Shown here: positions 14,834 to 61,808 of the stretch, in pieces
How positions within the stretch are numbered: the first letter of the stretch is position 1
Layout: every line of letters starts with the position of its first letter
DNA from: Amphiscolops sp. MND2022
Lineage: Eukaryota
Direction: 5' to 3'
Length of the DNA: 64,000 nt
Assembly (NCBI GenBank): GCA_964187785.1
Contig: OZ076421.1
Coordinates: 37,262,001-37,326,000 of the forward strand
Notes under the pieces: model-generated
What the model was told of the DNA's origin: nothing
What the model saw: only the letters and a program-made list of their open reading frames with translations
Databases searched by the model: none
Program-made: the position numbers and the translations under genes

Positions 14834-15979
14834 TGCACATCTTTTGCAAAATTTTTCACAAAACCTCTTTGCAAAAGACAAAGAAAATGCAATATCTGAC
14901 ACTCCCTTTTACAAGATTCTTGTAAAGTTTACGAATTTCAGCTAAAAATGGTACAAAATATAAAAAATTTTACAAACCTTTTACAAAATTTGCATCATTT
15001 GACTTGAGAAAATATTGAAAAAAAGTAGATGCTAACCTATTAATCAGAAAAAATCATGGGAGGGATAAATGACACCATACTATTAACTTTAGCTTTGGCA
15101 ACAAAAGGATCCTATGTCTATCATAAGTGACCTCGATCAAACCTTTCTAAAACAGCTGAGAAAAAGAGAAAAAAAATACAATTAAAAAACCAAATAAAAT
15201 CATGCAATTTCCCATGACCCCACGACTGACCCTCGGGGATTTGAAACATACCATGAGTCATTTACTAATGTTCATGATAAAAAAGTATTCAACAACATCA
15301 AAATTGTTTTTTTAATACAAAAAGACAATCAACGCTGTTCTTGTTTCTCTTAAAAAGGGGTGTTTAAACCAGCAAGTTTTGATTGCAGAGCAAAAAAGTT
15401 CTTTTTTGTGGATATATTCCTGAAAAGTTTTGTGGCTGAAAAGTAAAGAAAAAATTGTGAAAACGTTTTGGATACTTTCAATTTTGTTGAAAAAGATAAA
15501 AGAAGTAAAAGAACGTTAAAAAGAGTGTGCATTTTTTATTTTAGTCCAATTTGAATCAACATATTGAAGAAAAAATGAAATCTGAATTCGGAGAAATTCA
15601 AAAGTTGAAGATCGAAAATCTTTTAGAGCTAAAGTGATCATTCAATCGTGGGCTACTCTTTTTACTTCAATCTTACTAGCTTTCGTGAAGTAACCCTTTA
15701 GTGGCATAATTATTACGTCAATTTGAAAGGTACGGCGACAACTCATACCAAGTGACAACTCATATCAAACAAAATTCATATCAGAAAATTGAATTCTAAA
15801 TCAGAAAAAGTCTGTTTAATGAATTTATTCCAAATCATCTGTTTAATATTTACAAAAATTTATTCACTTGAGGAGATTATGGTAAATATCAGTGCCTTCG
15901 ATAATTTTTTCATTATCATAACTTGATTTAAAAGTTTGCAGGGAAATTAATTAAATAATTAATCAATTAATTTTTCCAG

Positions 15980-16932
15980 GCACTGTCAACTTCTGCTGGA
16001 TTCCAGACACTTACTTCATTCTAGCCAGATCTATCTACTACAGCCCATCATCACAAAGTCTAACTGTCCAGAAAGACGGAAAAGTGTTTCTGGATCGCAA
16101 AATCCGGCTTGTGACCCCTTGCACGCCAGAAGTCTGGTTCTTCCCATTCGACGTCACAACTTGCAAAATTCTCATATCCAGTTACGGCTACGAGGAAGAC
16201 GAAATGGACCTGTATTGGCAGGAAACCGGGATTGATTTTCCCTTCGAGTACGAACCCTTGTCGGAAATGGGTTTCAAAATGATTGGAATGAAAACCAAAA
16301 AGTTCGCGGCCCCCTATGGTACGTCAAACTTCACAATTTTGGAAGGCCAGATAGAACTGAAGCGATTATACTCAGTTTACATCTATCAAATTTACATCCC
16401 CGCCGCACTGCTGGTCCTGCTATCTTGGGTCTCGTTTTTCATCAACCGAAACGCGACTCCGGCTCGAGCCAGCGTGGGTGTGACCACAGTTCTTACCATG
16501 CTAACTCTGGCTACCCAGAGCCAGCAGAACATGGAGAAGCACATAACTCTGGAAACAAGTTTGCTCGATGTGTACATTTGGGTCAGTTTTAGTTTCGTCA
16601 TTGCCGCAATGATGGAGTTTGCGGTTTCGGACTATTTCAATGACCGGAAAACCCGCGCTAAAAACAAACCCCGTCCGGCTGTGAAACCCCAGATCTACGA
16701 GAATCATAACAACAACAATCTGAACCCCATTCACAATAACATAGGAGGGGGGCCTCACCCCTCCATACCCCTAATCCGCAATTCCGACTCCGGCGCCCAA
16801 CCACCTGTCGAAAAAAATTCCATTTCCATCGACGGAGCTGCCCGTATATTTTTTCCTCTCACTTTTTTCATTTTCAACACAAGCTATTGGATCTACGTTT
16901 TTATCCACAGTCAAAAAAGTGACGACACATGA
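15980..16932 (+). CDS. Cys-loop ligand-gated anion channel (GABA-A/GlyR/GluCl superfamily), exon 3 with the rest of the ECD and M1-M4
   Basis: Acceptor TTTTTCCAG|GC, phase 1. Contains WIPDTYF (loop A), C-x13-C Cys-loop CTPEVWFFPFDVTTC, SSYGY (loop B), M2 with PAR anion-selectivity motif (TPARASVGVTTVLTMLTL), M3 and M4 (IDGAARIFFPLTFFIFNTSYW). Spliced CDS is 294+136+953=1383 nt = 460 aa plus stop. Confidence 0.95.
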
Positions 16933-21101: not shown

Positions 21102-22098
21102 AATCGCTCACTGCTTCCTCTTGTCAGCATAGAGCACGGCTTTTATTTGTTTTTCTGTTGTAATTCTAAATTGGAAACACATCAAACTCATTTTAAAATA
21201 GAAGAGAAATCGAGGCGAAGTTCAGTGATATGTTTTTCCCCAACAATTTAGCGTCAATCTGAAATTAATTCACATTGATGCGAATAATGGAGCCAAGCAT
21301 CTTACTGTAACACTCGTGTCTTCAACTGTTGTATTGTACAAAATTGTACAAATTGTACACTGAATTGTACAAAATTGCCTATTTATTTGATCAAATGTTT
21401 GATCAAAAATGTTCTCCAAATTCCAGATGAAACCGTGTATCTCGAAACTCAAGTTTCTGATGTTTTTATGGGGATTAAACCTATAAGAAGCTGAATTGAC
21501 CCGTTTTTTGTTTACTGGAAAACAATAGAATTTTTCAGCAGATTTGCTTTTGGTCTAATTTGAATATTTTTGGGTTCTTTGAAAATTTATCTGGCACAGA
21601 TTCAGGCCGATGCCCACGTTTTTCAAAGCAAAGGAATGAAATGAAAACCGTATTGGACATTTTATTTAGACGTGTCATTCTAAGCATCATCATCAAGTAT
21701 GTCTCAAAGAATTATGCAGACTCTAAAATAATTTTTGACATATTAGAGTTTTAGTTTTTACTTCATAAATTTAGAGTTTTCTAGAAACTTCATTTTCACC
21801 CATTATATGCATCAAATTGGGTTTCATCCTGAAACTTGAATATCGTTCTAAAATGTTTGTCGTCCATCCTGTTGCCTTACTCTGTTCTTAGCTTCCTGTT
21901 AGACTTGTATATATTGTCGATGAAGAAGCGATGAAAGAGGCAGCAAGCGTATGTAAGATGGTTTTTAAATTGAGGCCTTTTGGCCATATTTCGTTGCTTT
22001 TAGTGATGCTTGTTGCTTTTGACATCACAGCTTCCGCGAATTAGATATGATCAAGTCAGTTTTCGTAGATTTGAGTCCATTTATGAGCCCTTATTTAA

Positions 22099-22877
22099 TT
22101 TAACAACCGTGACTAGATGTTAAATCTATGACTAGAGTTCCTTTTTGTTTCCTATTTCAATCGGATGCGAGGACGGTTGTTTTAAATAGTTTTAAGCTAG
22201 CTTGCTTTTCTGTTGTCGTTCTAGGATTGCTCGAGTTAAAACTTTCTTCTGCTTTTTAGGAAAGAATTCAAATTTAAGTTTAATACGTACAAGTTAACAA
22301 CTTACATTATTTTATCAATCTGCACAACTGGAGTTGAAGATAGCTGGTGGGGTTTAGAAGCAAGGTTGGAGTTGGGGTGATGAAGTTGAGACAAAAGTCA
22401 GAACTGCTTTCTTCTTCGGAGTTAATTTATTGAATGATCAAGATTAAATTTTTGTGTTTTTCGAAAGGTTCGAACAAGTTTTTTTCATGAATTTTATCAA
22501 GGGGTAAATAATTGAGCACAGTAATTAAGATTAAATCCAAGCATGCAAGTTGACAAGTTGATACGAAGAATACGAAGAATAATTCCGAGCAAGATGTAAC
22601 AGTGGTTGAGTATTCAATACGTTTTAACAACATCAGTATTTAGAGGGTACAAGTTATAACAAAGTAAATGTGAGTTATGGTTTTAATTCTTGTTGAGAGT
22701 ACAAGTTATAACAATGCGAAGTTAAGTTATGAAGCAACAAGTTTTAACAAATGATTGTTCAAGAGGGGCTCTTTGCAAAGCGAGTTTTAAATTCTTGTCT
22801 GTTTTGTTTGTTTAATAAGGTACTTGAGTTTTCTTGTTGCTGTTTTGTTTTATCTTGTTCTGTCGAGGCTCGTTATA
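22099..22877 (-). repeat. 3' LTR of element 1
   Basis: Colinear with 34008-34786 at offset 11909; about 9 substitutions and no indels by manual comparison (about 1.2%). AATAAA on the - strand near 22425. Confidence 0.95.
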
Positions 22878-22880
22878 ACA

Positions 22881-22890
22881 GGCTCCTCCT
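22881..22890 (-). promoter_or_regulatory. Polypurine tract of element 1
   Basis: The - strand reads AGGAGGAGCC just upstream of TGT-TATAAC at the start of the 3' LTR. Confidence 0.7.
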
Positions 22891-23047
22891 GTGCAGAATT
22901 GTGTCCTTACAATTATACTAGCTGGTCCATTCAGGAATTGAATAGCAGGTATAATTGAGGATATTCTATTCGGCCTTGTTTAGCAGGGCGTCCATCGGAA
23001 GTATTGGGCAGGCATTCGGGGCAGAACAGGCGGCGGGAAAGAAGATC

Positions 23048-24151
23048 TTAAAGGCCTGTAAGACCACAGTGGTCATAGACTACGCGAAGGGGAGGATGCA
23101 TGAGAACCCGCTTGATGTTGGTAATGAGGGGCACGAGTCGCGCCGCATCATGTGCCAGGGGCCCAGTGAGGGTATTTTTGTCGGGGTGTATGAGGCGGAG
23201 TAAAGCGTTCGCCTGCGAAGATAAGAATGTAGTATCCGCATCAGATTTGCAACATAGGAAGTGATAGAGAGTGTCATCGGGTGTCGTTTCAGCTTCGAAA
23301 TCCGTCGGTAGCGAGGTTAAATGACTGAGGAGAAGTTGAATGGCGGCGTCGGGGGAAGTATTAGTCTTGCGTTTAAGTTGTGATTTAAGTTCGTTGATTT
23401 CCTCAATTCGGTGGAGAGATTCTTGCAGCAATTGATTATGTGTGACGCGAAGTTCCTCAAGGGTTGCTTTTAAACGTTCAGACTCTAATTGAGCATTGGC
23501 CAGGGAGCTTCTTATTGCAACAGCTTCAGCGTTGGCTTTTTCATACAGGTCGAAGTAATTCATTGCTTCCTCGCGAGCTTCACAAAAGGCAGTGTTCAAA
23601 TGGTCTACGCAGGAGAAGTCCGTCATAATTGAGCACCAGTCATCGAGGGCTTTATCGGTAGTGAGTTCGCATTGAATAGCGATGTCATCAGTATCGGGGT
23701 GTACTTTTGGCGGTTCAGGGTCAGGACAAAGGCAGTTGTTGGTAGGAAGATCTACGGCACACGTAGAGTCTGAGGTTAACGGGGGTGCAAGGCAAATTTG
23801 ATGCCATGAACGACGGAAGGGGCGGTTGGTGGTGTTGATGCGCTGTAAGCGCACGGCCTGCTGGTCGGGGAGGATCTGGGTGACACGATATTGCACATCT
23901 TCTACTAGGTATACATTGTCGCCAACACTGAGAGGGTGCACTCGTCCGGAACAAGTTTGCACAGGGAAGGGCGTGTTCTCCGGAACTCGGGTGTTGAAGA
24001 ACTGGAAGAAAGACCTAAACAAAAAAAAGTCATGACTAATTGTTTTTTTTTCATTTAGTATAACCCTATTATTAGATAAGACATACTGAGTAGTGTAACA
24101 TACGGAAACGTATGTAAGGCAGCTGAAACGTACGGGTACGTACGAGTGCAT
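23048..24151 (-). CDS. Retroelement accessory protein: SH3/Tudor-like barrel, coiled coil and C-terminal DnaJ J-domain (probably spliced, exon starting at 24014)
   Basis: Uninterrupted 367-codon ORF between env and the 3' LTR. The C-terminus TLYHFLCCKSDADTTFLSSQANALLRLIHPDKN...ITNIKRVLMHPPLRVVYDHCGLTGL follows the J-domain pattern (HPD at 23181-23189). Strong acceptor TTTTTTTTGTTTAG|G at 24015/24014. Confidence 0.85.
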   Translation of the reverse strand: MHSYVPVRFSCLTYVSVCYTTQYVLSNNRVILNEKKTISHDFFLFRSFFQFFNTRVPENTPFPVQTCSGRVHPLSVGDNVYLVEDVQYRVTQILPDQQAVRLQRINTTNRPFRRSWHQICLAPPLTSDSTCAVDLPTNNCLCPDPEPPKVHPDTDDIAIQCELTTDKALDDWCSIMTDFSCVDHLNTAFCEAREEAMNYFDLYEKANAEAVAIRSSLANAQLESERLKATLEELRVTHNQLLQESLHRIEEINELKSQLKRKTNTSPDAAIQLLLSHLTSLPTDFEAETTPDDTLYHFLCCKSDADTTFLSSQANALLRLIHPDKNTLTGPLAHDAARLVPLITNIKRVLMHPPLRVVYDHCGLTGL

Positions 24152-24351
24152 GAATCATGAGAACGTTGGCAACTGTTGGAATGGCACGGATACATGCCAA
24201 AGGGGGAGGACTGGGCCTCTGTGTGAATCTAGCGAGAGTCTTGACAGTGTTTGATTTCAATTAATAAATATGTAATATTTAGTAGTGGGTGACGCGGGAA
24301 CACGTACAAAGGGGGCAGCAAGCTGTTATTGGAAATCGAGGAGTGTAAAAC

Positions 24352-26733
24352 TTAAGTAGAAGATTCAGAATATATAGGAGCGCCAACGGTTGGATAAATT
24401 CGGGGTGGTGTTTGAGGTTTGTTATGGATTGTAAGAGAGTTAGTGTTAGTATTAGTGTTAGTATTAGTGTTAACTGAGGCATAGTTAGTTTGTAAGGTCT
24501 GGAGAGGTTCTGATTGTGTAATAGTAGCATGTGCGAGTGATTGAAGTGCGGTAAATTCCTCAAGCGAAAGATAGAGAAACGTGGAATCGATGTCAGCAGG
24601 GTTGGGAACAGAGTCGACGATGTGGAGGAAACGACCAGAGTTTCCTCGGAAGAAACGTTGCGGATGTGCAAATAGTCGTCGCCATTGTCGTCGAAAGAGC
24701 GTAAAATTCACGCCGAAAGTAAGTAATGATAGGGTGATGGAGACCAGCGAGAAGCACACAGCCGTTCGAAGAGGCATATAAGAAGACAGAGCAGCAGATG
24801 TAGCTGGAGAAATCGATGAGTAGTACTGGGTTATTGGTCGGGTCAATTCTTCAAGCGTGTCTGATGACATGCGTTTAACATCCGGCAATTCAGCAAGTTC
24901 GAGTCTAACGCTGCTGAGTACCGATTGACGTGCTTCAGCGACTGAGTAGGCATGAAACTTATGAGCTATTTGTGGAACATGTTTGAACACATGAGCCAAA
25001 GAGGGGGTCAGTTCGATAGACGCCACGAGAGGCTCCGGTTTGCTTTCGCAGAAATCCATGTCCGGTGAAAGAACAAGATCACCTTGGTTGAATGATAGTG
25101 TGCTGGTACAACTAGGGCGAATTAGGCAAGCTTGGCAAGAAAGTGTTGATATCGAAAATCCAGCCAAGCGACTATCGTTTTTCATTTGAATGTTAGGATT
25201 TCTTGAGATTACATGATAAAGGCCATCAGCTAGATAGAACGCTTGAGGAGCGTCAGGAAGCAAAACAGATTCCACCTTACAGTTTCGGAGAGATGGAATG
25301 TCATAATTATAGAACAAGGAGGGCAGGCAAAGGAGAGTTTCGTCTGTGGTGGTGGAGAAACCTTTACGACAAAGCTTTATCCTATTATTGCCGGAGCATT
25401 GCTGCACTGTGGAGGCGCTGAGTTCCGCGAACTGGGTATTGTCTTCAGATATGGCTAGGAAGGGGTTAGTGAGTTGGTAGATTGAAGCGGTGTCACCATC
25501 GTCATTCGGTTGATGCAGTGCTGTGGCATGATACACATTGAAAGAAGAAGAGCGGGAATTCATGGGAATACCGAGTACATCCGATATGCCTCGGGAAAGA
25601 AGGGATACTTCCAAGACAAGTTGTATCTCGTAGTAAATGGCTTCTTGGCCAGGACGGATAGCGGGGGACAATTTGGTCCCTCTGAGGATCTCGTCGTTGG
25701 CGAGCTCGTTAACAATTTGAGACAGCTGTGCTGGAAGGAGAAACTGTGGTGTGACGTAACCAGCTGCTAGTGACGATATTGTTGAAAAGAGTGCAACTTT
25801 GTAAGCGTAAAACGACGCACGATAACTTTTCACATGGGTATATAAGGAGTCCAAATGATTTATGTAGCTACGTATTTCCTCAGAAAAATACATGTTTTGA
25901 ATAATGTGGAGATTGCATTGCCAGGTTCTCGCCAATACACCTTTAATCTTCAAGATGTCTGTCTGGAGTAAACTAAGGTTGGCACCGATAGCATCGTTGA
26001 TCTGCTGAACACTTTCCTGTGTTGCTTTTATTTCATGTCCCAGCATGAAAAAGTTTTCATCATTTTTTGTCTGTACACGTTGTAGAGTTTCCTGGAAACT
26101 TCTTTGCTGGTCCATAATGCGGTTGACATTATCTTCCAACACTCTATTGTCTGTGCAGAGGTTGAAAATCGAGAGCGCCGAACATGCAGCGTTCTTTACT
26201 GGGTCTCCGAGAACCAGTCCAGCCGCGCCAGCGGCTGCCATCAATATTCCTACCGCTCGGCGGTTTCTTGTTCCGGGATGTGTATCCGGGTCCACTCGTG
26301 GAGGTAAGAAGGACGATGCTATGTCAAGTAATCGAGATTCATCATTGCGGACACTTTGGATTTCTTTCTCCAATAACCTTAGTTTTTCTTCCAACTGATC
26401 GAATAGCAAGTGATAGAGTTCTGTCATTTTCTGAGACTCACACAATTTTACGGTGTCCATCCCTTCGATTGTATTAGAGTTGCCTTTCGTTCGCAAGATG
26501 GTATACACATCGGTTAGGTTTATAAAAGGCATGTTAGGGAACGGCGAGAAGACGCGAACTTTGCTTTCACTTTCCGACGTCACGGCTTGGTATTTGAACA
26601 CGAAAGCTGCACCTTTCTTGAAGATGGGTGTGTCCATTGTGTCACTTAGATGGGTGGCGAATTGAACGTCCGCGGAGCTAAGATGAAGGGTGAAGAGCCA
26701 ATAGAAAAGGAGAAAGACAGCCATTGTGCCCAT
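24352..26733 (-). CDS. env: Envelope / class I fusion glycoprotein (793 aa)
   Basis: Signal peptide MAVFLLFYWLFTLHLSSA; furin site RNRR followed by fusion peptide AVGILMAAAGAAGLVLG; heptad-repeat helix; Cys-rich region; TM AVCFSLVSITLSLLTFGVNFTLF; cytoplasmic tail. No stops or frameshifts. Confidence 0.92.
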   Translation of the reverse strand: MGTMAVFLLFYWLFTLHLSSADVQFATHLSDTMDTPIFKKGAAFVFKYQAVTSESESKVRVFSPFPNMPFINLTDVYTILRTKGNSNTIEGMDTVKLCESQKMTELYHLLFDQLEEKLRLLEKEIQSVRNDESRLLDIASSFLPPRVDPDTHPGTRNRRAVGILMAAAGAAGLVLGDPVKNAACSALSIFNLCTDNRVLEDNVNRIMDQQRSFQETLQRVQTKNDENFFMLGHEIKATQESVQQINDAIGANLSLLQTDILKIKGVLARTWQCNLHIIQNMYFSEEIRSYINHLDSLYTHVKSYRASFYAYKVALFSTISSLAAGYVTPQFLLPAQLSQIVNELANDEILRGTKLSPAIRPGQEAIYYEIQLVLEVSLLSRGISDVLGIPMNSRSSSFNVYHATALHQPNDDGDTASIYQLTNPFLAISEDNTQFAELSASTVQQCSGNNRIKLCRKGFSTTTDETLLCLPSLFYNYDIPSLRNCKVESVLLPDAPQAFYLADGLYHVISRNPNIQMKNDSRLAGFSISTLSCQACLIRPSCTSTLSFNQGDLVLSPDMDFCESKPEPLVASIELTPSLAHVFKHVPQIAHKFHAYSVAEARQSVLSSVRLELAELPDVKRMSSDTLEELTRPITQYYSSISPATSAALSSYMPLRTAVCFSLVSITLSLLTFGVNFTLFRRQWRRLFAHPQRFFRGNSGRFLHIVDSVPNPADIDSTFLYLSLEEFTALQSLAHATITQSEPLQTLQTNYASVNTNTNTNTNTNSLTIHNKPQTPPRIYPTVGAPIYSESST

Positions 26734-26745
26734 CGGGGTTTCTCT

Positions 26746-26820
26746 CCTGAAGTAAGGAAATCATTGATTTTCATGGGAAAGTGAAGAGTTATAAGAAAGA
26801 AGAAGGATCAGAGAGGTTAG
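26746..26820 (-). promoter_or_regulatory. env splice acceptor (branch point, polypyrimidine tract, AG)
   Basis: The - strand reads ACTAAC CTCTCTGATCCTTCTTCTTTCTT...TTTCCTTACTTCAG|GAGAGAAACCCCGATG. Confidence 0.7.
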
Positions 26821-26825
26821 TATGT

Positions 26826-29800
26826 TCATGACCCTGGGCCGTTTCTGGCAGCGTTCTTCTTCTTTTTCGGGGACAGGAAGTCGGTGAGATCACGTGGAAT
26901 TCGAGCTTTGTATAGAGGATTGGCTTTTCGTTGGTTCATGGTAGATTGTCGTAGACTTCGCGGTGGCATAGAAGTGCGCTGTACGAATTGCTGGGTCGCG
27001 CTGTCAATAATAGTTCCTAGAGGGGATCGCAGATTTTCGTGAACGCGCGTTGGTGTTGAGTGCTGGGGAGTAATGGTTCTGAAAGAAGAATCCGAGGGTT
27101 CTCTACTCTGAAAATTTGAGGTGTTGAAGCAGTCAGCGGTCTGGGTTGGGACGAATGGGGGAGCTGAAGCATTCAGGAGAGATTCTCGGTGCACGGGAGA
27201 CTGCGACTGCTGGGTCTCGGATTGCGAAGTGGACGTAACAAACGATTGTGAAAAAGAACAGTTTGTTGGAGGTTGCCCTCTCATGGGCAGGAAAGTTACA
27301 TCACAGTCGCTATGATCAAAGCCCTGTCGCTTTGAGGGTTTTGCGGCCGTAGTAAGTGGCGTCAAGCGCTCGGGTATGTTACTCGTGGAAGGGGGTTGAC
27401 CGAAGTAGGGTTTGATACGGTCATAGTGAACTACCAACTGTTTCTGGGTGCTCAATTCTTCGATTTTGTAATTGGCGTCATTAATACATTTCAGTATGCG
27501 GTAGGGTCCACGCCAAGGACTAGATAATTTAGGACTATTTCCTTTTGTAGTGACAGGATAATGGAGGAGAATGTAATCATTTTCGTTATACGAAGAACCA
27601 TGGACCTTTTTGTTGTATATGGCATTCCGTCGCAATTGTTGGGCATTAGTGCTGTAACGCACTAGTTCAAAGGCTTTATGAAAAAGAGCTTGCTTTTGTA
27701 GTACGAAGTTGTTGGGAGGCAAGGCAAGATTGGATTGAGGTCCTTTGTACATCAAATCAATGGGTAATGTCAGTTCGTGGCCGAACACTAAGAAATTCGG
27801 TGTGAAGCCTGTTGATTCATGAACAGAGGAACGATAGGCCAATAAGACGAAGGGAAGAAGTGAAGACCAATTTGATTGGTCATCGGCAATGCATTTGGAA
27901 AGCATATTGAGCAGTGTTCGGTTCATTCGCTCAATGACTGAATTCGATTGGGGATGGAAGGAGGTAGTTCTGGTTTTATCGATTTCAAGTCGGCGCATAA
28001 GGTGCTGAAAAAGATCAGACTCGAAATTTCGGTCTTGGTCTGTATGAATACTGTAAGGACACCCAAAACGACAAATCCAGTGTTGCAAGAACGCGTTAGC
28101 AGTGGTTGTAGCTTGCTGATCAGGGAGTGGTAACGCCTCGTACCATTTTGTGAAGTGATCTCCGATCAATAAAATGAATTGGTTGCCGTTAGATAGCGGC
28201 AATGGCCCTAAGAAATCCATCCCGATATGGTGGAACGGGTAACTGACTTTCCAATCGACCAAGGAATGACGGTGCGTTTTCGGTGGGTTGGAGCGTTTTT
28301 GACAAATATCACAACATCGGATAAAAAATTTAACATCCTCCTTGAAGCCTGGCCAATAGAAGCGTTGTCGCACCTTCTCAATGACCTTGTAAGTTCCTAA
28401 ATGGCCAGCCGTTGGAGAACTATGAAGCGACTCAAGGACTTCTGGAATTAAGACGTGAGGTACAATCTGTTGAAGGAAGGGGACGCTACCATCGTTAGGC
28501 TCGAATTTTCGACAGAGAATATCGTTATGAAGGTATAGGCTACCTAAATGGTTATACATTCGCCAGGCCAGTCTCGGTAGGCCTTGTAACTCACTAGTGG
28601 TAGGGGTTTTGCTGGCCCGGACCCAAGCGCGAACGTGGCGTAGGGCCTCGTCTGCCTCTTGTAGTTCTTGTAGTGTTTCGATTCCACTGAATTTTCCATT
28701 GTGGTTAGGCTGCGAGGATCGTGCAAACTCTTTCAGATACAGTGATTTGAACAGTTGATGTACGGAACGTTTCTCGGATGAGTTGACAGATTTTGTCTTC
28801 GTCCAAGCAATCCACACCACATCCAGCACAAGGTATGCTTATACTTTTCACTGTATTCTGTTCAGCATGTGCGCGCATACGCTCTAACGAGGCTCTGAGG
28901 GTACCGTATGTGGTTTTGTTGTTCTGCTTTTGTTTTGTAATCAAGTGGTAGATGTAGCGCTGGGAGTCAGGTAACCACTGAGGCCAAATAGAATGAAGGG
29001 TGTGATCGAGGTTTGTGGGGTAGGCAATGGGAAAGTTTCTTTTGATCTTGCGAGCTATGCCCGATGACATTTTGAAGTCGGCGGAGACACAATGAGCGAA
29101 GGAGTCATTAGTTGAGAGAAGGTCCGCGGAAACCTCACGGTACTGGCCGGTTGGTGAGAGATCAGGAATGACTGGAGTAGACACATTCAAGTCTCGGTTT
29201 GGCCATTCCTGGTCACAGTTGTTCGCGTCTACAACTGGCTCATCTTCACCGGGTCTGTAAGCAGGAGTTGATTGTTCAGTGATCACGTTGATGACGGAAG
29301 GAGATCGTGACAGGCCATCAGCATGACCAATCGACTTTCCGGGACGATGCCTGACTTCGTAATTGAATGGAGCCAGCTTTTCAAGCCAGCGCGCGGTTAT
29401 CCCATCGGGATCTTTGAAGTTATGGAGCCATTGAAGTGCTCGGTGATCAGTAACAATTGTGAACTTTTGCCCTAGGAGATAGTGACGAAAGTGTCGGGTG
29501 AAATTAACAATAGCGAGAAGCTCACGCCGCGTCGCAGAATATTTGCTTTGAGCCTTGGAGAAAGACTTCGACGCGTAACATATAGCTCGCTCAAGACCGT
29601 CATGCTCTTGTGCAAGGACGGCGCCCATTGCAAATTGGCTTGCATCGGTGTATAAGATGAAAGGTTTGGTTAATGAAGGAAAAGCTAAAACGGGCGTCGT
29701 GGTGAGTTTTATTTCAAGGATCTCGAAGGCTTCCTGAGCTTCAGAGGTCCATTGGAAAGCAGACGAAGTCTCACTTGCTTTGTGAAGGGGGCGTGCAATG

Positions 29801-31561
29801 GCGGCAAAGTTTTGGACGTATCGGCGATAGTAAGAGGCTAGCCCCAGGAACGACTTCACCTGGGTTTGGTTTTGAGGTTGCGGGAATTCGACCACTGCTT
29901 TGACTTTGTCTGGGTCAACCTGTAGTCCATGTTGACTGACCACATGGCCGAGGAAGTTAACTTTTGTGCGAAAGAAGTCACACTTTGATGGGTTGATCTT
30001 CAAGTTGGCGTCACTGAAACGCTGAAATATTTCCCGAAGACGAGAGATGTGCTCCTGCTGAGTTTTTGCGAAAATGATGCAATCATCCAAATAAGGAACA
30101 CAAGTTTTCCAAATCAGGCCCACTAGGACACTTTCCATTAGGCTCTGGAACGTGTTCGGGCTCCCAGTGAGACCCATTGGCATGCGAAGCCATTTGAAGG
30201 AGCCGAAGGGGGTGCTAAAGGCTGTAAAATCTTGACTTTTCTTCAGCCATTGGTACTTGGTAGAACCCAGCCGACATGTCAATGGTAGAAAAGTAGGAGC
30301 TGCCTTCTAGTGTGTCGAAAATTTCTTCAATCGAGGGGATTGGCCAACTCGACTTGACGGTAGTCAATGACAAGCCGAAGTTTTCCATTTTTCTTTGGAA
30401 CCAACATAGCCGGGGAGCTATATGGACTGTGACAGGGAGTGATAAGATCTTTATCGAGAAAAACATCGATTTTGTTTTGGAGGTCTTCTTTGTAGTGCAG
30501 TGGCATCCTCCTGTTGGGAATTTTGACCGGCCTTGACCCTGGGTAGACTTCAATCTTGTGACTAGTGACATCGCACTTACCCAAATCCCATTCGGATGAA
30601 GAGAACACGTGCTCGAATTCCTTCACTAGATCTTTAAATTGTTGTCGGTATTCCTCATCGATGTCTTCGTCAATGTTGCTGAATAGTGACTCTAAGTCGT
30701 ACTTCATACTCTTCTTGGTTTTGACTTGCGACTGGTTTGGTTTCTGAGACGGACGTGGGAGAGGCGATTGACTGACGTTATTCAAACTGTCTTCAGACAC
30801 AATCTCTGATGTCCACAGAGTTGTGTTTTTGTATATAGTTATTATCGGAGGAGGCTGTGTTATTGAACACTATTGGAATCGTTTCCTCAGAATAGTTGAA
30901 AAGAATATTCGGAGCGACCACCTCGCGAGTAGAGTTAAACTTTTCGAGAGGTTCAAAATAGCATTCAAGGGGATAGGTGGTTTCTTCCAGTCCGAAATAT
31001 GGGCTGGCAGAATTTTGGCATGGCCAGCTGGTACCATGGCTGTTTCGGTGGCAATGACTCGAAACACTGCATTACTGGTGAGCTCAAAGGTTTGTGGTAC
31101 ATGGGAACAGACTGAGTTGAGTCGAGTCTCAGTTTCATCTGCGAGAACAGTGGATCACACTTGTTTGTTTCTAGGAAATCCAGTCCCAGAAGGCAATCGG
31201 CTTCTGAATTTTCCAAGACACGGAATTCATGAACGTACTGCTTCGTACCTATTCGTACCGGAACCCGTATGACGCCTTTGACTGCTATAGGTAGTACATT
31301 AGCTGCTCTCAGGTTCCTAGTACACGCGTTCAAGGGAATGTCATTTCTTTTCTTCAGTTCATCATAGATTTTAGGGTTCAGACAAGACACACTTGCTCCA
31401 CAATCACGTACAGCTTCTACATCTATGTTCAAAATTGTGAGTTTAACGAAGACGCTACGGGGGTCAACCACTGAATTCATTGTTAGGACTGATTGTGGGC
31501 CATGGGGTGTATTCGTGTCTGCGCGGAGGCCCTCTGGCGTAGACGATTTCAGTTTTCCTGG
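26826..31561 (-). pseudogene. pol: pol (protease, RT, RNase H, macrodomain, integrase) with about 5 frameshifts; -1 frame relative to gag
   Basis: PR AVRDCGAS; RT SPYSSPAMLVPKKNG, MPMGL, YLDD; RH YTDAS, RELLAIV, VTDHRAL. IN has HHCC (H-x6-H...C-x2-C), GMDFLGP, HTDQDRNF, VIERMNRTL and GPY. Frame breaks near 31085, 30870, 30340, 30240 and 28740. Confidence 0.95.
28742..29146 (-). other. TARG1/OARD1-type macrodomain inside Pol, between RNase H and integrase
   Basis: SFAHCVSADFKMSSGIA, RYIYHLITKQ, KTTYGTLRASLERMRAH and ISIPCAGCGVDCL resemble the TARG1 motifs SLAHCISEDCRMGAGIA, RYIYYLITKK, KPTYENLQKSLEAMKSH and LSMPRIGCGLDRL as I recall them. Confidence 0.88.
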
Positions 31562-32828
31562 TTTGACCGGGAAGCTCTGCAGTCCCGTCTGAAGTGGCCT
31601 ACTCTATGACAATTGAAACATGCTTTGCACTCGTTCGAGGCATGATTGGTCCGCTTACAATGACGACATTCCTGTTTCTGGTTCGATTTACTGTTGGAGT
31701 TCTTGGAATAGTCGGAAGAGTTCTTTCCTTGGTTATTACGGTTCGGTGAATGCCTTTGATTGTTCCTGTTGTCATACTCTCTGTGTCCGTTCCTCTGAGT
31801 GTGGCGACGCTCGTTTCCATCCTCAAAGTGGACCGATCGGGATCGATCTCCCGAGGTACTTCTATCATCTCGGCGTCCTCGGCCTTGATTTCTGTCGTGG
31901 GAATTGTTCCTGTTGGTTCCTTGCTGGCTGCTCGAGTTATTACTGTGACGATTGTTGTCTCGCGAATCGGACCTGTTGCTATGTGAAGCCTTTAAGTTGG
32001 CAATCTCAGCGCGTAACGTTCTAACAAGCTCATCGACTGTGTCAGACCTTTGGGAGCCGGAGGCCACTTGATTAACAGCACTTGTAAACTCCGTACTTGC
32101 TTTGTTTTGTTGTTCTAAGGCAAGGAACGAGTCAAGCTCGATAGCCAATGTTAACGCTTCATCAGCTGTGGTAGGCTTGGTTTTTCTTAGTTCCCATCGC
32201 AGGGTCGAATTCTTTAGACCTTCGATGAAACTGGTCAAAACAATTTGTTCAATAAGATGAGGATGGTTCCGGTATGCGCTTCTTGCTAAAGTTCGAATAT
32301 CGCACAAAAAAGTAGCAATGTCCTGCGTTGGTTGTTGTTTAGCGGCTTTCAAGCGAGCTTTCAGTATATCAACATTTGTAGTGTAGTTCTGTCGGAACGC
32401 TTCGACGAGTTGAGCATAATCGCCTTGTTGTTCAGATGACAAGGTTGTATAGAAATGAAGTGCATTTTCTCGCAGACGTAGTGCAAAATATTGCGGGCGA
32501 TGGTCATGTTGATCAGAGCTCCATCCTGAGAGCGTGGCAGCCGTGTTGAACTGTTGTAGATAGTCCTCGAAATCTCCAGAACCATTGAAGATTTCAGGCA
32601 TCAAGCAAGATGGGAGTGACACGCTCATGGGTAGAAAGGGGGGCGGTATTGACCGTTGACTGCCGCAGTGGAGTTAAAGATTCGTGTGAAAGCATCCGTA
32701 GTGTAATTGTTCGAAAGTGGATCGGCGGGAGTCGAAGAAGAAGTTGCTGATTGGTTTTTAGGAGGGCCTTCGGCATGGGAAGTGCCCGTGGAGGCGTCCA
32801 GTTGCACACCATTTTCAGTATCACTCAT
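31549..32828 (-). CDS. gag: gag (one frame break at about 32628-32643)
   Basis: PEIFNGSGDFEDYLQQFNTAATLSGW capsid-type start and two CCHC knuckles, CRHCKRTNHASNEC and CFNCHRVGHFRRDC. The 67-aa upstream ORF (32828-32625) overlaps the 359-aa ORF at ATGA. Confidence 0.9.
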
Positions 32829-32968
32829 TTTGATTGCAGAAAGAAACCTTTTCGTTCTAGCACTAGATTTGCTGACTGTTCGATATGGTTTATTCGAATG
32901 TTAATGTAGGTTACCCGCCAGAAACTGTAGATTTTGCTAATGCAGGGCGTAATATCACTTTCACACAA

Positions 32969-33349
32969 TCAAATTTGTGAGATACCTCTGCGGAGAAAAG
33001 TTATGCGTAGATGAGCGTCAATAAGAAGTAGATTTTCGACCCACTGTCGCGTCAATTTGAAAAAGAACAAGGATTTCGGGTGCAATCGTGATAGTTGTTT
33101 TCGGGAAGTGCTTTTCCGTCTGACTTCTGCGCGGTTTATGTTAGATTGATGTTCTTTGTCGTGTATTAGCATTAAATTCAAGTAAAGTTGTGAAATTTCA
33201 GGCGAAAGGCCTTTAGCATGCTCTGGATATTTTTCCAAATGTTGAAAGAGTTCAAATCGTTCGACTTGGCAGAGGAAACACGGATATTTTTGTGGCGATT
33301 GATGAGGGGGCACAGAGTTTATTTCAGAGGTAAAAACAAAGTGATACAT
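32969..33349 (-). CDS. Leader ORF-B, 126 aa, possible Zn-binding accessory protein
   Basis: ATG-initiated, in element sense, non-overlapping, between ORF-A and gag. Contains C-x2-C-x9-H-x6-H (CFLCQVERFELFQHLEKYPEH) and a basic stretch RRKSTSRK. Confidence 0.5.
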   Translation of the reverse strand: MYHFVFTSEINSVPPHQSPQKYPCFLCQVERFELFQHLEKYPEHAKGLSPEISQLYLNLMLIHDKEHQSNINRAEVRRKSTSRKQLSRLHPKSLFFFKLTRQWVENLLLIDAHLRITFLRRGISQI

Positions 33350-33402
33350 GCGGTTTTTTGGAAAATTAACGGTCCAGTTTTACGCAAAGGATTTGGTACT
33401 GT

Positions 33403-33648
33403 TTACACTGAAGACTTCATGCAACTGGCCGTGACATACTCCAAACGTATCAGTATGAAAGCTTGTCCGACTATGACAGTGAGAAATAAAAGCAAGACAC
33501 AAATGACACTAACTGAAGTTAAACACAAAGATGCGGAGTCTAAACGGAGTCTTCTATCCACAGCTCGCGAATACCGGGGAGGAGGTTCAGCGGGATAATT
33601 ACGGTTCAAAACGTACCGGGGTAAATGATTAGTATGGTTATGATACAT
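33403..33648 (-). CDS. Leader ORF-A, 81 aa, PPxY motif plus single TM helix
   Basis: ATG-initiated. PAEPPPRYS, basic RAVDRRLR, then hydrophobic LCLTSVSVICVLLLFLTVIVGQAFILI. Confidence 0.55.
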   Translation of the reverse strand: MYHNHTNHLPRYVLNRNYPAEPPPRYSRAVDRRLRLDSASLCLTSVSVICVLLLFLTVIVGQAFILIRLEYVTASCMKSSV

Positions 33649-33988
33649 AATTAATATTAGTATAGGTTAAAATTAGCTAACATTGAGGGTTTTCAAGGTT
33701 TAAGATAAGAAAGAAAAAACTGTAATTTTTACTATCCAACACTTTACCGTCTCCTGAAACGAAGAATAATTAGCGATTTTCAAGTTTTTCAAAAGAATTC
33801 CTAATTGCCCGTGCTCTGGAATTTGCCTACTTATGGGCCCTATCTGCCGTCTACTGTAAATTTTCGCTAGCAGAGCAGCTAGCGTTAGGGCGGGACAAGT
33901 CCCGGAACGAGATCTTAAGGCAGTGTTTTGGAAACATGTGGTCACGCTAAATTACGATATTTTACACTTTTCTTCTATAACAAGAGCA

Positions 33989-34006
33989 ATCCCACTCCTG
34001 TCACCA
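33989..34006 (-). promoter_or_regulatory. Primer-binding site (tRNA-Leu type) of element 1
   Basis: The - strand TGGTGACAGGAGTGGGAT lies 1 nt from the LTR end and is complementary to a tRNA 3' end ATCCCACTCCTGTCACCA, which resembles metazoan tRNA-Leu(CAG) ...ATCCCACTCCTGACACCA. Confidence 0.85.
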
Positions 34007-34007
34007 A

Positions 34008-34786
34008 TTTAACAACCGTGACTAGATGTTAAATCTATGACTAGAGTTCCTTTTTGTTTCCTATTTCAATCGGATGCGAGGACGGTTGTTTTAAATAGTT
34101 TTAAGCTAGCTTGCGTTTCTGTTGTCGTTCTAGGATTGCTCAAGTTAAAACTTTCTTTTGCTTTTTAGGAAAGAATTTAAATTTAAGTTTAATACGTACA
34201 AGTTAACAACTTACATTATTTTATCAATCTGCACAACTGGAGTTGAAGATAGCTGGTGGGGTTTAGAAGCAAGGTTGGAGTTGGGGTGATGAAGTTGAGA
34301 CAAAAGTCAGAACTGCTTTCTTCTTCGGAGTTAATTTATTGAATGATCAAGATTAAATTTTTGTGTTTTTCGAAAGGTTCGAACAAGTTTTTTTCCTGAA
34401 TTTTATCAAGGGGTAACTAATTGAGCACAGTAATTAAGATTAAATCCAAGCATGCAAGTTGACAAGTTGATACGAAGAATACGAAGAATAATTACGAGCA
34501 AGATTTAACAGTGGTTGAGTATTCAATACGTTTTAACAACATCAGTATTTAGAGGGTACAGGTTATAACAAAGTAAATGTGAGTTATGGTTTTAATTCTT
34601 GTTGAGAGTACAAGTTATAACAATGCGAAGTTAAGTTATGAAGCAACAAGTTTTAACAAATGATTGTTCAAGAGGGGCTCTTTGCAAAGCGAGTTTTAAA
34701 TTCTTGTCTGTTTTGTTTGTTTAATAAGGTACTTGAGTTTTCTTGTTGCTGTTTTGTTTTATCTTGTTCTGTCGAGGCTCGTTATA
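34008..34786 (-). repeat. 5' LTR of element 1
   Basis: Near-identical to 22099-22877 and adjacent to the PBS. Confidence 0.95.
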
Positions 34787-35159
34787 TTAACGAAGAAATA
34801 TAGTACAAATGCAAGAAACTTAATTCATATTGAACGAAAATTTCTGATAACTATTTGTCTCGTTCAAATGACGTTTCTACATGTTTTTGTAGTTTGGTAG
34901 GTACACAAACCTGTACAGAAGATGAACAAGACGGAGCGTCTAAAATCGACGCTATAGCTAAGGCTCAAAACGCGCAGTTTTCAAAATATGCGTTGGACGT
35001 TTTCAAGAAAAACTCCTGTTTTCGAACCTCCGCCTCCTCCTTACTAAAACGCAATATAGTTCGGATATAACATCAAACGTTCGGATATAGCGCTTTACTC
35101 CGGATATTACCCGGAGGGATTTCCATTAATCGTACGGTTGACCATTTCGATACAAAAAC

Positions 35160-55050: not shown

Positions 55051-56728
55051 AGTTTTTATTGTCTTTGTAGACTCGCCGATTGAGGAAAGTCAGTTGAAAA
55101 CGCTAGCAATAGCGACTTTTGTTAATGCCTATGCGGCAAAACCTGGTGACTACATAGTAGACATACTTCTCTACGTTTCGAATGTATGTCTGAATTGACA
55201 TCAGCGATGTAATTATTCGAAACATTCGAAGCTGAGATGATTTACTTTTAGAAGAAAATAAAAGATTGTACACCGGAAACACTACACTTTGGCCACGAGC
55301 TATTACCACCCGAATAAAGTAGGTTGATCCTCCAACAACCGTACCAGCAACGTTCAAAGATAGTCATAATGTATGAAAAATTGGAAACCCTGATACAATT
55401 TGGCCATATGCAAACATTTTTGGACCTCTGATTTGTAAATCTGCACCCGTCGATCCTACAATTGTGAAAAGTGTCCACGATACTCATATACCAATGCTAA
55501 ATACATGGAAGTTACATCAATTGCTCAATTGCGCGAAGAGCAGTGTTTATTCAAGGTACGCGAAATTGAAACGCGGTGTAGTATCTAAAAACGTGCTAAC
55601 GCGGTGGAAAAGAGACTTTTGACTTTGTCTTTTAATATCTCAAAAGGATCACGCGAATACAAAAAGTCGATTGCTACCGAGGGCTTTTATCTCATCTGGT
55701 GGTCACAGTCTTGAGCGAACAAACGGTCCACAAGTCAAGTAACTAAGAAACCACTATCACTAAGTCGCAATCAACCGCCATATTGGGCCGTTAGATGACA
55801 CGGAGAAGCGTCAAGGTCACAGGCGGGCAGGAAGGTCTTTCCAGGGGACGATAATTGATCTTATGAGAAACCCTGCATTGCAGCAAGAAATTCGAGCTCG
55901 TTTGCGTGATATATTCTGACGCGTTTGTAAACTGTTTACAAATGTGAACAATTTGACTCAACGTCTTTGACATCGCATCAAAATCGCAAATATCTTGAAA
56001 CGCAAATTATTATGGAATATGAATTTAAGACAAGGTATTGAGATATGTGTAACGTGTGGTAAACAAATCTCTAGTCGAAGTCTAACAACGTTCGGTGTAA
56101 TATCTAAAAACGTGCGAACTCAAAATGCCAAAACCAATATTGTAAATGTAGGGTATAATGGAATTCGAGCGTGAGATCATGCGCGGTAAACAGTAATACC
56201 TGATGAGGAATTGGAATCTACTTGAATGACCTGAACTCAGTTTAGGAGCTACGAACAACTTTATTCTCGTGCCGACAAGACACTCGTTCAGAATGAAACT
56301 TGGGGTCTCGCTAGCCAGAGTCTGAGACTGAAACTGAGAACTGTGACTGTTTTGCAGCATAGAGATTTGAAAGTGACTGAAATGATAAAGTAAGGTGAGG
56401 AGAAGGTTTCAAAGGTTAAATAAAAACTGATATAGCTTGACTAGGAAGCTTTCTCATAAGAGTATCATGTACGTATCAACTGTACTTTAGATATCAAATC
56501 GTATATATGTATTACAAATGCATGACTTCAAGAACAACGCTAGCACGTACTTAAATGTCAGTTCCGATGTTGGCATACCATCCTTTCTATGCCACATTCC
56601 CTCCTCTGTGGATTTTTAGGGGAACCAGTCCCGGGAGGACTCATTGTTCTTTATCCGGGGAAATGGAGTGATTGGGTACTTCTTCGGTATGGTGAAAGTG
56701 TATGTATTTCCTAATTGAACAATGATTA

Positions 56729-59700
56729 TTAGAAACACTCCACTCCACCGAGCTTTACTACCCTCTGTGCCGTTCTTATCCTTTCAGATCTACGTGGTTC
56801 TAAATTAGTTTTTGTTTTACTATTTTCGACCTCGGATTTTTGTTTTAACCCAGGCCCGTTTCTTGTTCGTCGGCATCGTTGGTAGAGTGTAGCTCGTGCT
56901 GGGTTCATTGTCTTCAATGTTGTTGTTTGGGTCTTGCCTGGCTGATTCGGTACGTAGATGTGTTTCGCAAAGCTCGCCGCTAAATTTCCCACATCTGCGG
57001 CATCGATTGGTGACTCTCTTCTGTTCGTCGTTCTTTTTTGATGTCTGAAACTCTAAAGGTTTGGATGCTAATTATTTGGGTATTATTCTCCCTTCGGAGT
57101 TGGTGATTGTGTGGTCTGTTTCTTTTACCGCTGTTAAAGTTTTGTTTGTTTTAAAGCCGCATTTCATTGCGTTTGGTTTGTTTTCCTTTTTGTAAAATTG
57201 ATACTTTTTAAAATCCCGGCATACCGAACGGCCTCTCTTTCTTGTTTCGTTCACGACCAGATAATCCGCCATTTCGCCATCTGAGTCGTTGATAGTAACG
57301 ACTTGGAGTCCTGTAGGTTGTGCTGAAATATAATTGGTTAATGTCCTTTTCCAATTCGATAGTAGACATTCTGATTTACCAATTAAGTTGGTCAGTGCGA
57401 TACGTGGCTTTCTACCTAAATGCATTTGGAAAGGTGTCATGTTTAATCTAATATGTGGCGTTTGTCTAATTTGTTTTTATTGCTAGCTGTACGCTATCTT
57501 CAAAGGCTATGCTATCCGCCATGTTTGCTCTAGTAAGTGATTTAATTGTCCGCATAGTCCGCTCGACTAAACCGGTACCGGTGTGTAAATTGGGAGTGCA
57601 TCTAATACGTGTGACGTTTTCACCGTTGCAAAACTACCTAAATTCGTTGCTTTTGAAACAACTACCGTTGTCGGTTCTGATACACCGTGGTATTCCGTTA
57701 TCCGCGAAGTATTTTGTTGAAAATTTTAAAACGTTCCGTACTTTTGCAAATTTGTGCGGTCGGCCATTTACTAAAACGGTTGATGGCTACCAAAATATAA
57801 ACATCGCCCCGCGTCTTCGATTTGATTGGACCAGTGAAGTCCAATTGAATTTCCTGATTCGGTTCGGTCAAAATTTCTAGAATGTTTTTTTTTCCGTTGA
57901 CGGGATTTGTGTAATAATGTTCTCACCTGCGGCCCTGCAATTCGGGCATGATTCCGCTTTTTCTTGTAATTCTCGGTGCATGCCAGGCCACCAGAAAGCT
58001 TCGGCTGATTGGTCCATTTTTGCAGCTGAGATGTGACCGTGATCCAGGCCATCAGGTCGGTAATTGTTGTGCGCATGTTTTCGGGAATAACTATTTTGTC
58101 ATTGGAAAACAGCAGCCCGATTCTGGTAGAAAGATGTAATCGATGAGGGCGGTACGGGTAAAAAATGCTGTCCAGTTGTTGTTTTTCAATTCCAGCTATT
58201 GCGTTTAGGATCTTTATGTCTCGAGCGGTCTCATCCACTAGTAGAGGGAGATCTAAGGCAAAGTGCTTCTCTGCCCTCTTGATGGTTTCTTCGGTGCTCT
58301 CATTCTGGTCTGGGTTGAGTAGGTCTTTTTTGGCCGTCTGTTTCAGAATTACTGTCTCGTGTTTTTTGAATCTTTTCAGAGCATTGGTCGGGCATTTGTC
58401 TTTTTTCGTTCTGCTGATCTCACTTTCTCCGTCTGGTTGATTGTTGTTCAGTCACGATTCGTTGTTATTTTGCTGAAACTCTAGTAGAGGCGTTGTTCCG
58501 AGCGTCTCGCAATAGTGAAAAAAACGGATGTAAATTTCAATGTTGAGTTCGACTATCCGTTTTCTGCCGGCTTGATTTGGTCTGTACTCCTCTATCCCTT
58601 CACTTTGTTTTCCTTTCCCCACAATACGGGTTTTATCCGGCTTTAATATGTGGCTTCGCTCAACCCAGAGACGTTTTGTTTCGGGGGAGTGGCCTCTCTT
58701 TTTATAGATGAAATCCATGTCGATGTCGTTGACGTTGTCAATTTTACGGTTCGAGTGTGGCGAGATTTTATTCAAAGAGTTGATACTGTTTGGTAGCGAT
58801 GAGGTTTTACACAAATGAGTGTTTGAATTTCGTTCACGTATGTTTTTGTCGCGCTGTGATTGGTCGAATTATTCTCTCGCGATCGCTTGTTCGATGAATT
58901 GTTTAAAACTTCCTCGTGCTCGGATGAATTCGAATAGGCCGTATATTTGGTTAACGACGAACTCGGATTCCGCTTCGTTTTGTCCGTCCGTTTTGTTCTC
59001 TGACTCGCTAATTTTGGTCGGTAAGATCGGGCGACACCTTGAATAATCCATTAGCGGAATGTTTTTACCGGCCGTGTATTGGACATTAACATCAAAATGG
59101 CTCATTCTGTCCAACCAACAAATCAGCCGTGCGCTGTATTGTTTATGTGCTCGGTTTCTTTTCAACAAAGGCTGTAACGCCTGATGATCAGTTAGTAAAT
59201 TCACCCTTTTACCATACACATAATACCTGAAGTATTCTAATCCCCAAAACGCTCCCAACAATTCCAATTCATTTATCGCGTATTTTTTTCACAGTCAGTT
59301 AAAAATCTACTTGCAAAAGCTACGGGTCTGAATATTTCACCTTCTTTCTGCCACAAAGTCGCACCCGATCCGGTGTTACAAGCGTCGGTAGTGATGTAGT
59401 TGCTTCTTTTTGGGTCAAAATGGGCTAAGCATGGGGCTTCCGTAATCTCCTTCTTCAGTTTCTCGAAGTCCTCATCTATTTCTGGTGTCCAGTCCCATTT
59501 AACATCTTTCTTTAATAATTTTCTCATTCGATCAGTTTTTTTCGACAAATTATTAATGAACTTCGACAGATGTTGTATGGAGCCCAGGAAGGATTTCAAC
59601 TCCGTTACGTTCTCCGGTGCGACAAGTTTGGTTATCGCTTCTGTTTTGTATTTAATTGGTTTGACGCCGTTCTGATTGATGAGATAGCCAAGCCAGGTTA

Positions 59701-61778: not shown

Positions 61779-61794
61779 GATATTTTGTTCAGGT

Positions 61795-61808
61795 TGCTGA
61801 CTGCGCCA
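61795..61808 (-). promoter_or_regulatory. Primer-binding site (tRNA-Ser type) of element 2
   Basis: The - strand TGGCGCAGTCAGCA directly abuts the 5' LTR. TGGCGCAGTC is the tRNA-Ser PBS type known from several gypsy-group elements. Confidence 0.75.

Follow-up and report, generated by a model that had tools for sequence, protein, structure and literature searches.

Which kind of element occupies positions 22099 to 34786 of a 64,000-nucleotide stretch of the Amphiscolops sp. MND2022 genome (assembly GCA_964187785.1, contig OZ076421.1, positions 37,262,001 to 37,326,000; hereafter the window, meaning this whole stretch), and do the genes that it carries beyond gag, pol and env truly belong to it? 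The interval holds, on the minus strand (34786 to 22099), a 12.7-kb Ty3/gypsy element with an F-type envelope gene (env), in which six coding units follow one another in the order ORF-A, ORF-B, gag, pol, env and J-ORF (ORF, open reading frame). With a probability of roughly 0.7, we read it as a broken copy of a recently mobile env-bearing Ty3/gypsy clade whose conserved extra genes are likely host-manipulating accessory factors. Its features, in window coordinates and in the order of transcription, are as follows.

34008..34786, minus strand: 5' long terminal repeat (LTR), 779 nt, termini TA...AA
34208..34216, minus strand: predicted splice donor AT/GTAAGT in the 5' LTR, intron start at 34214; found in 23 of 24 copies that bear a primer binding site (PBS)
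33988..34006, minus strand: PBS, 19-nt pairing with the 3' end of host tRNA-Leu(CAG) plus CCA
33403..33648, minus strand: ORF-A, 81 amino acids; LPxY and PPxY motifs, then one transmembrane helix
32969..33349, minus strand: ORF-B, 126 amino acids; CxxC...HxxxH, predicted zinc-binding helical protein
31549..32828, minus strand: gag, with two zinc knuckles, a frameshift, and its end at a predicted -1 slippery site
26826..31570, minus strand: pol, encoding protease (PR), reverse transcriptase (RT), RNase H, macrodomain and integrase (IN), with a long C-terminal tail
28740..29120, minus strand: macrodomain of TARG1/OARD1 class, between RNase H and integrase
24352..26746, minus strand: env, class I F-type; predicted acceptor at 26747, ATG at 26733
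23048..24014, minus strand: J-ORF, predicted acceptor at 24015; KOW/Tudor-like barrel, coiled coil and HPD J-domain, with a premature stop
22883..22890, minus strand: short polypurine tract (PPT) of the window's family, AGGAGGAG, read from 22890 to 22883
22099..22877, minus strand: 3' LTR, the pair of the 5' LTR
22095..22098, no strand: target-site duplication (TSD) TTAA, second copy at 34787-34790

The first-pass annotation of this DNA had proposed six coding units on one strand within one LTR pair, together with a PBS, a PPT and a TSD, and all of them were located. The LTRs, TSD, PBS and PPT place the element in Ty3/gypsy, with the non-canonical LTR termini TA...AA instead of TG...CA; these termini, flanked by 4-bp duplications that differ each time, recur in all nine own-family copies with both ends present. 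Six of six unbroken Pol proteins have the order PR-RT-RNase H-Macro-IN, that is, the Metaviridae order with a macrodomain before the integrase. When the RT was ranked by similarity (a ranking, not a tree with named references), Ty3 came first (E=5e-50), followed by a match at 1e-36 and by murine leukemia virus at 1e-29, so that Ty3/gypsy, ahead of both Retroviridae and Caulimoviridae, is its nearest group. A complex genome with predicted subgenomic mRNAs would also be expected of a true member of Retroviridae, but the probability of that affiliation is negligible, considering the RT nearest to Ty3, the single RNase H with Ty3/gypsy Pfam families, and an envelope that is F-type and not retroviral.

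The copy in the window is itself defective, a point absent from the first-pass annotation. Its gag is frameshifted near 32.6 kb, its pol lies in at least six pieces (breaks near 31.1, 30.96, 30.85, 30.36, 30.24 and 28.74 kb), and its J-ORF stops prematurely at 23048, upstream of a C-terminal CxxC that is present in sister copies; some of these frame breaks may be homopolymer errors of the assembly. The LTR pair differs by 9 mismatches in a gapless alignment of 781 bases, two of which are common flank bases (1.15% divergence), in agreement with the earlier figure of about 1.2% and the recent insertion read from it.

Copies were collected from the host genome (1.07 Gb searched). The leader sequence recovered nine loci at 97-100% identity, plus single loci at 91% and 84% and a partial one, the element's own family being represented by 11 near-full-length leader matches, and the J protein search gave 145 matches among 128 scored candidates. 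Ten sister copies were collected, along with 18 J-bearing regions from other families, which comprised four further full-architecture families (F2, F3, F4/5 and F7-9) and one env+J remnant; RT identity to the window was 73-75% in the three further families measured. In every one of the five families, ORF-A, ORF-B, gag, macro-bearing pol, env and J stand in this order, with invariant motifs in accessory proteins of only 17-48% identity. Whether the accessory ORFs are conserved among copies gathered by LTR and RT search had been a question raised by the earlier annotation, and the sisters and the four further families keep them. Moreover, an env search not conditioned on J found J within 3.5 kb downstream at 41 of 45 env loci; of the remaining four, two had J 16-29 kb off and two had it on the other strand. 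LTR-pair identity ranged from 81.6 to 100% over 22 copies, several being at 99.7% or above, and frames are unbroken in some copies of several families; therefore, the clade moved recently.

This anatomy (gene order, five-family conservation, motifs and folds) is a matter of observation, and so is most of the selection acting on it. Purifying selection, measured by codon counts between natural copies as the ratio of nonsynonymous to synonymous change (dN/dS), was found for J and the macrodomain, for the most part in ORF-B, and clearly in just one family for ORF-A. The values for J were 0.11-0.27 in nine diverged pairs, compared with 1.1-1.8 in the shifted frame, and those for the macrodomain were 0.17-0.26 in three F2 pairs, while ORF-B gave 0.12-0.40 in six of seven pairs and ORF-A gave 0.09 and 0.13 in F2 (controls 0.70 and 1.04). 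Pairs with a partner lacking the region were left out (F2_C7 for ORF-A, ORF-B and gag; F3_C10 except for J; F6_C3), as were near-identical pairs with few differences; own-family ORF-A, RT and macrodomain were unscored.

Macro domains are occasionally placed in retroelement Pol proteins by automated annotation. The domain found here, lying between RNase H and integrase, matches human OARD1/TARG1 at E=1e-21, and its macro fold together with the equivalents of TARG1 Lys84 and Asp125, kept in 11 of 12 macro sequences, assigns it to the TARG1/ALC1-like class. These two residues form the catalytic dyad of TARG1 (PMC8120803), an enzyme described as stripping ADP-ribose off acidic residues and nucleic-acid ends (PMC7050489, PMC8120803). 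The earlier description of an ADP-ribose hydrolase-like domain in Pol thus holds as to class, hydrolase activity being a prediction from the motif. Fold and dyad are shared with human TARG1/OARD1 (PDB 4j5q), from which the domain differs in being embedded in a retroelement Pol and in the loss of the dyad in one family. TARG1-like domains are reported from viruses in PMC4245714, the available part of which leaves retrotransposons unmentioned. Two further candidate motifs, a PAM2-like motif in the integrase tail and PPFY in gag, were confined to the window's family and were therefore rejected as clade features.

The env frame (26733-24352) encodes 793 amino acids, with a furin site (RNRR, residues 156-159), a fusion peptide, a transmembrane segment near 657-675 and a YPxV tail, and 3 of 31 env homologues match Baculo_F of Pfam (best 3e-8; above the cut-off in the two checked). 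By these features it qualifies as an F-type env after pol, the F-type or gB-type arrangement of errantiviruses in the broad sense. Compared with the PDB, the single sequence gave no real match; with the profile, coiled-coil noise came up along with an unnamed 'fusion protein' (E=0.05). A search for env in viral and metagenome contigs found none. The env tails (24352-24400 in the window) end in YPx(V/I/L)-type motifs in 11 of the 12 homologues listed, and these motifs may act in sorting or as a signal of ALIX type.

The product of the J-ORF is a class C J-domain protein by its four-helix J fold and HPD motif. Its model (mean pLDDT, the predicted local distance difference test, 79) consists of an N-terminal barrel, an 80-residue helix, the J-domain and an invariant CxxC. 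The modelled J-domain reached Z 8.7 (range Z 8-9) with a root mean square deviation (rmsd) of 2.5 over 73 aligned residues, the profile matched DNAJC5 at E=2e-8, and H, P and D were each kept in at least 90% of 25 aligned rows; Pfam DnaJ scored 17.5 bits for the window protein, under the cut-off of 27.8. The barrel was about as close to Spt5/NusG KOW domains (Z 7.7; for Spt5 KOW, rmsd 2.1 over 60 aligned residues) as to Tudor domains (Z 7.0). No whole-length match to the barrel-coil-J-CxxC layout was found in PDB, BFVD or Atlas, where the best Atlas score was 0.77 and gave no lead. Among viral proteins, polyomavirus T antigen has a J-domain, and the giant-virus DnaJ proteins and baculovirus Djbp share the HPD J-domain with the J-ORF, which differs from them by its layout. 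The Hsp70 interface suggested earlier for this protein agrees with the HPD J-domain, and the interface itself is read from motif and fold. In addition, the J-ORF region together with LTR pieces is repeated in tandem at G000:C11:7307800-7320300, C1120 and C12:47298000-47303000 (L055, L056 and L058), those on C11 being 76-80% identical to the window and mostly interrupted by stops; they represent a local amplification that involved J but not the remainder of the element.

ORF-A was present in 18 of the 24 PBS-bearing copies, with PPxY in 15 of the 18, LPxY/F in 17, an invariant Cys42, and Gly2 in none. The PPxY motif and the transmembrane helix fit the ubiquitin/ESCRT budding interface proposed at first, ESCRT budding being just one reading, which a NEDD4 adaptor fits equally; from these motifs, ORF-A is likely an adaptor of NEDD4-family ligases. 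Herpesviral UL56, UL42 and U24, which are described as NEDD4 adaptors, are likewise small membrane proteins with a cytoplasmic PPxY (PMC5849660), a likeness of layout only, for which sequence homology is not expected. Another reading starts from Drosophila MDG1/412, where two small ORFs, one of them transmembrane, precede gag on unspliced RNA (sORF1 and sORF2; PMC11952523): ORF-A would be a FAST-like fusion protein like sORF2, which is myristoylated, ORF-B would be the counterpart of sORF1, and the leader would follow the MDG1 plan and not form a ubiquitin interface. Palmitoylated FAST variants are possible, given the invariant Cys42. However, the myristoylated Gly2 that defines sORF2 along with its transmembrane helix occurs in 0 of 18 ORF-A sequences, most of which have PPxY; the transmembrane ORF comes first here, with PY motifs, and second in MDG1; the second ORF here bears CxxC/HxxxH; and env is present here and absent from MDG1 as described (PMC11952523). 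We consider the MDG1 reading very unlikely and the NEDD4 adaptor preferable.

The residues conserved in ORF-B are CxxC, HxxxH and one Trp. Its fold model (pLDDT 76) and sequence gave no match in Pfam, PDB or fold search, and comparison with the RAG1/Transib-type zinc C2H2 module (ZnC2 plus ZnH2) gave an Atlas feature score of 0.90 but low recognition, with all fold matches at Z 3.7 or below. The ORF-B profile had 37 matches among 1.84 billion proteins; about 35 resemble the ORF-B family, and 10 of 10 checked were unnamed. Family F2 (L021:2429-3400) carries two ORF-B paralogues, and one copy has an extra 100-amino-acid leader ORF.

How such a genome might be expressed is suggested by its splice signals. 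The donor AT/GT(A/T)AG lies 194-244 nt upstream of the PBS in 23 of 24 copies, although the LTRs are mostly unalignable between families, and shuffled LTRs yielded it in only 11-39 of 2,000 shuffles per LTR. The J frames begin at a polypyrimidine-AG with no conserved ATG, and the first base after the J acceptor is an in-frame G in all families and nearly all copies; the env acceptor likewise gives an in-frame G in F1 and F7/F9, and env in F7/F9 has no ATG of its own. Since the donor ends in AT and the acceptor supplies G, the splice itself would create an AUG, so that J and, in one family (F7/F9), env would owe their start codons to one LTR donor. In the springer subclade of Drosophila, env is reported to be spliced from an AU dinucleotide that makes its start codon in the same manner (PMC12992720), whereas in the present clade the donor of env would also serve J; the predicted new part is one AU-ending donor for two genes. 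As for gag and pol, the slippery sequence TTTAAAC directly precedes the gag stop in four of the seven copies shown, and pol lies in the -1 frame.

These elements can be joined in a working model, in which the functions of the extra genes are read from motifs and folds. An LTR-driven full-length RNA would encode ORF-A, ORF-B, Gag and, by -1 frameshifting, Gag-Pol, while the AT-ending donor of the 5' LTR would be joined to two acceptors, each usually giving the G that completes an AUG, for the J mRNA and also for the env mRNA wherever env has no ATG of its own. ORF-A would be a PPxY membrane protein that recruits NEDD4 ligases, and ORF-B a predicted zinc protein. The macrodomain, being inside Pol, would be packaged with it and, while reverse transcription and integration proceed, would clear ADP-ribose from nucleic-acid ends or viral proteins. 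In the J-protein, the barrel would hold a client, the coil would allow oligomerisation, and Hsp70 would be delivered to remodel that client, for which the capsid and a host restriction complex are the candidates. A bolder version, possible though doubtful, is that of an undescribed complex invertebrate errantivirus lineage whose accessory gene set evolved independently and rivals that of complex vertebrate retroviruses in scale. It would package a TARG1 eraser to oppose the ADP-ribosylation of reverse-transcription intermediates by the host, and would further carry a NEDD4 adaptor, a zinc protein and a barrel-coil-J protein, translated from its own spliced mRNA, that recruits Hsp70 and dismantles a host restriction or silencing complex. 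If true, this would imply a PARP-based anti-retroelement defence in the host animal.

Relatives outside the genome were surveyed as well. The database proteins P0128 (J) and P0046 (env), scored at the best candidate loci of the host genome only, match it at just ~52%, and other genomes therefore likely carry the clade too. The outside RT survey covered 81 loci, namely the best 80 of 590 metagenome matches and one viral contig. A macro profile match was found in 0 of these 81 (positive control E=1e-74 or better), as was a match to the ORF-A or ORF-B profile, and one locus (L065) had both J and env. This locus (L065:1-6906) is the closest outside relative among those surveyed, with 67% identity in RT-RNase H, and contains a J fragment, an LTR-like stretch, the same tRNA-Leu PBS, gag, a macro-less pol and the start of env, which we take for a gag-pol-env-J element in tandem or circularly permuted form; the short leader of L065 has a 52-amino-acid hydrophobic ORF loosely like the ORF-A helix, without a profile match. 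L065, on a long stem, joins the macro-bearing rows with a support of 100/100. Its branching outside these 11 rows has a support of only 73/81, so that the macrodomain may have been either gained after the split or lost in L065.

Several observations weigh against accessory roles for the extra genes, or against parts of the scheme. L065 lacks the AT donor, the macrodomain and any ORF-A or ORF-B profile match, and none of these is therefore required for the gag-pol-env-J plan. ORF-A of F5 has no PY motif, four F7 pairs of ORF-A gave dN/dS of 0.25-0.61, overlapping the shifted-frame control (0.37-0.62), and one ORF-B pair gave 0.87. In F2, both dyad residues of the macrodomain are lost and the domain is still under selection; thus binding, rather than catalysis, may be what counts. 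The env acceptor of F3 supplies A instead of G, and env there has its own ATG; the window env has no Pfam match; and the start of gag lies behind ORF-A, ORF-B and 9-13 upstream ATGs, which its initiation would have to bypass. The weak selection signal in ORF-A and in that ORF-B pair, like the absence of macro and ORF-B from L065, would be expected if the extra ORFs were passengers, that is, captured fragments or chance frames without a role. The chance of this is slim, since order is fixed and motifs are invariant over five families so far diverged, and since J combines low dN/dS with a dedicated predicted splice acceptor; for J and the macrodomain, the passenger reading is already largely refuted, which leaves accessory factors as the preferred reading.

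Extra domains have been noted in other elements, and Ty3/gypsy elements of orchids reportedly carry a demethylase domain. The first-pass statement that ordinary env-bearing gypsy elements have just gag, pol and env was overstated, because MDG1/412 has two small ORFs before gag (PMC11952523) and LTR elements of bdelloid rotifers carry extra enzymes (PMC5408684). The rotifer elements resemble the present clade as Metaviridae with captured enzymes and a paramyxovirus-like env; as described there, they differ in cargo (dUTPase, GDSL esterase, DEDDy exonuclease) and usually have one extra ORF (PMC5408684). F-type env Ty3/gypsy elements are reported as widespread in invertebrates, and the 'ancient errantiviruses' of Chary and Hayashi (PMC13524379) share with the present clade the Ty3/gypsy pol, the gag-pol-env order, the furin site, the fusion peptide, a tRNA-Leu PBS (among those reported) and a multicopy, recent state. 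The architecture could thus be real and already catalogued, as a family of Repbase, Dfam or GyDB or among the 'ancient errantiviruses', with its cargo genes annotated. We regard this as unlikely. The available text of PMC13524379 has no mention of macro, DnaJ, accessory genes or splicing; in its supplements, DnaJ is absent and 'macro' occurs just in species names in the rows listed, which cover 4 of 10 places; and its bridge-domain classes, which include a 'pseudo-RNase H' in the RNase H-IN bridge of insect errantiviruses, hold no macrodomain. The present clade differs from those elements in its two conserved pre-gag ORFs, the post-env J-protein and the TARG1 macrodomain in the RNase H-IN bridge, and macro was likewise found in none of the 81 surveyed loci. 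No paper linking gypsy elements with a macro domain or DnaJ was found in a literature search that had subscription papers, bioRxiv supplements, Repbase and GyDB outside it. Within that search, gypsy elements with env, pre-gag small ORFs and splicing from an AU donor are already known, and no precedent or printed account was found for a J-domain gene or a TARG1 domain as cargo of an LTR retroelement.

Accessory genes mark the host barriers that a virus must overcome, and the four conserved cargo modules of this one Metaviridae clade suggest that the ubiquitin, Hsp70 and ADP-ribose systems are where an invertebrate host puts retroelements under pressure. The modules lend themselves to separate assays, and natural variants (the macro-less L065, the dyad loss in F2 and the duplication of ORF-B in F2) offer material for studying the transition from a simple retrotransposon to a complex virus-like element.

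Elsewhere in the window, a host ligand-gated ion channel coding stretch (ligand-binding and transmembrane Pfam domains) lies at 15955-16932, about 5 kb from the insertion, and a second, older gypsy element of ~5.6 kb occupies 56385-62016, with 209-nt LTRs that are 94% identical and a decayed RT/RNase H. In the wider genome, the host mitochondrial COX1 (L064) follows the invertebrate code, with AGR as Ser, ATA as Met, TGA as Trp and AAA translated as Lys; this speaks against a cnidarian, tunicate or vertebrate host and, with less force, against echinoderms and rhabditophoran flatworms. The tRNA-Leu 3'-end sequence has 739 exact matches genome-wide and forms a long array with a period of ~296 nt at G000:C8:35.59-35.66 Mb.

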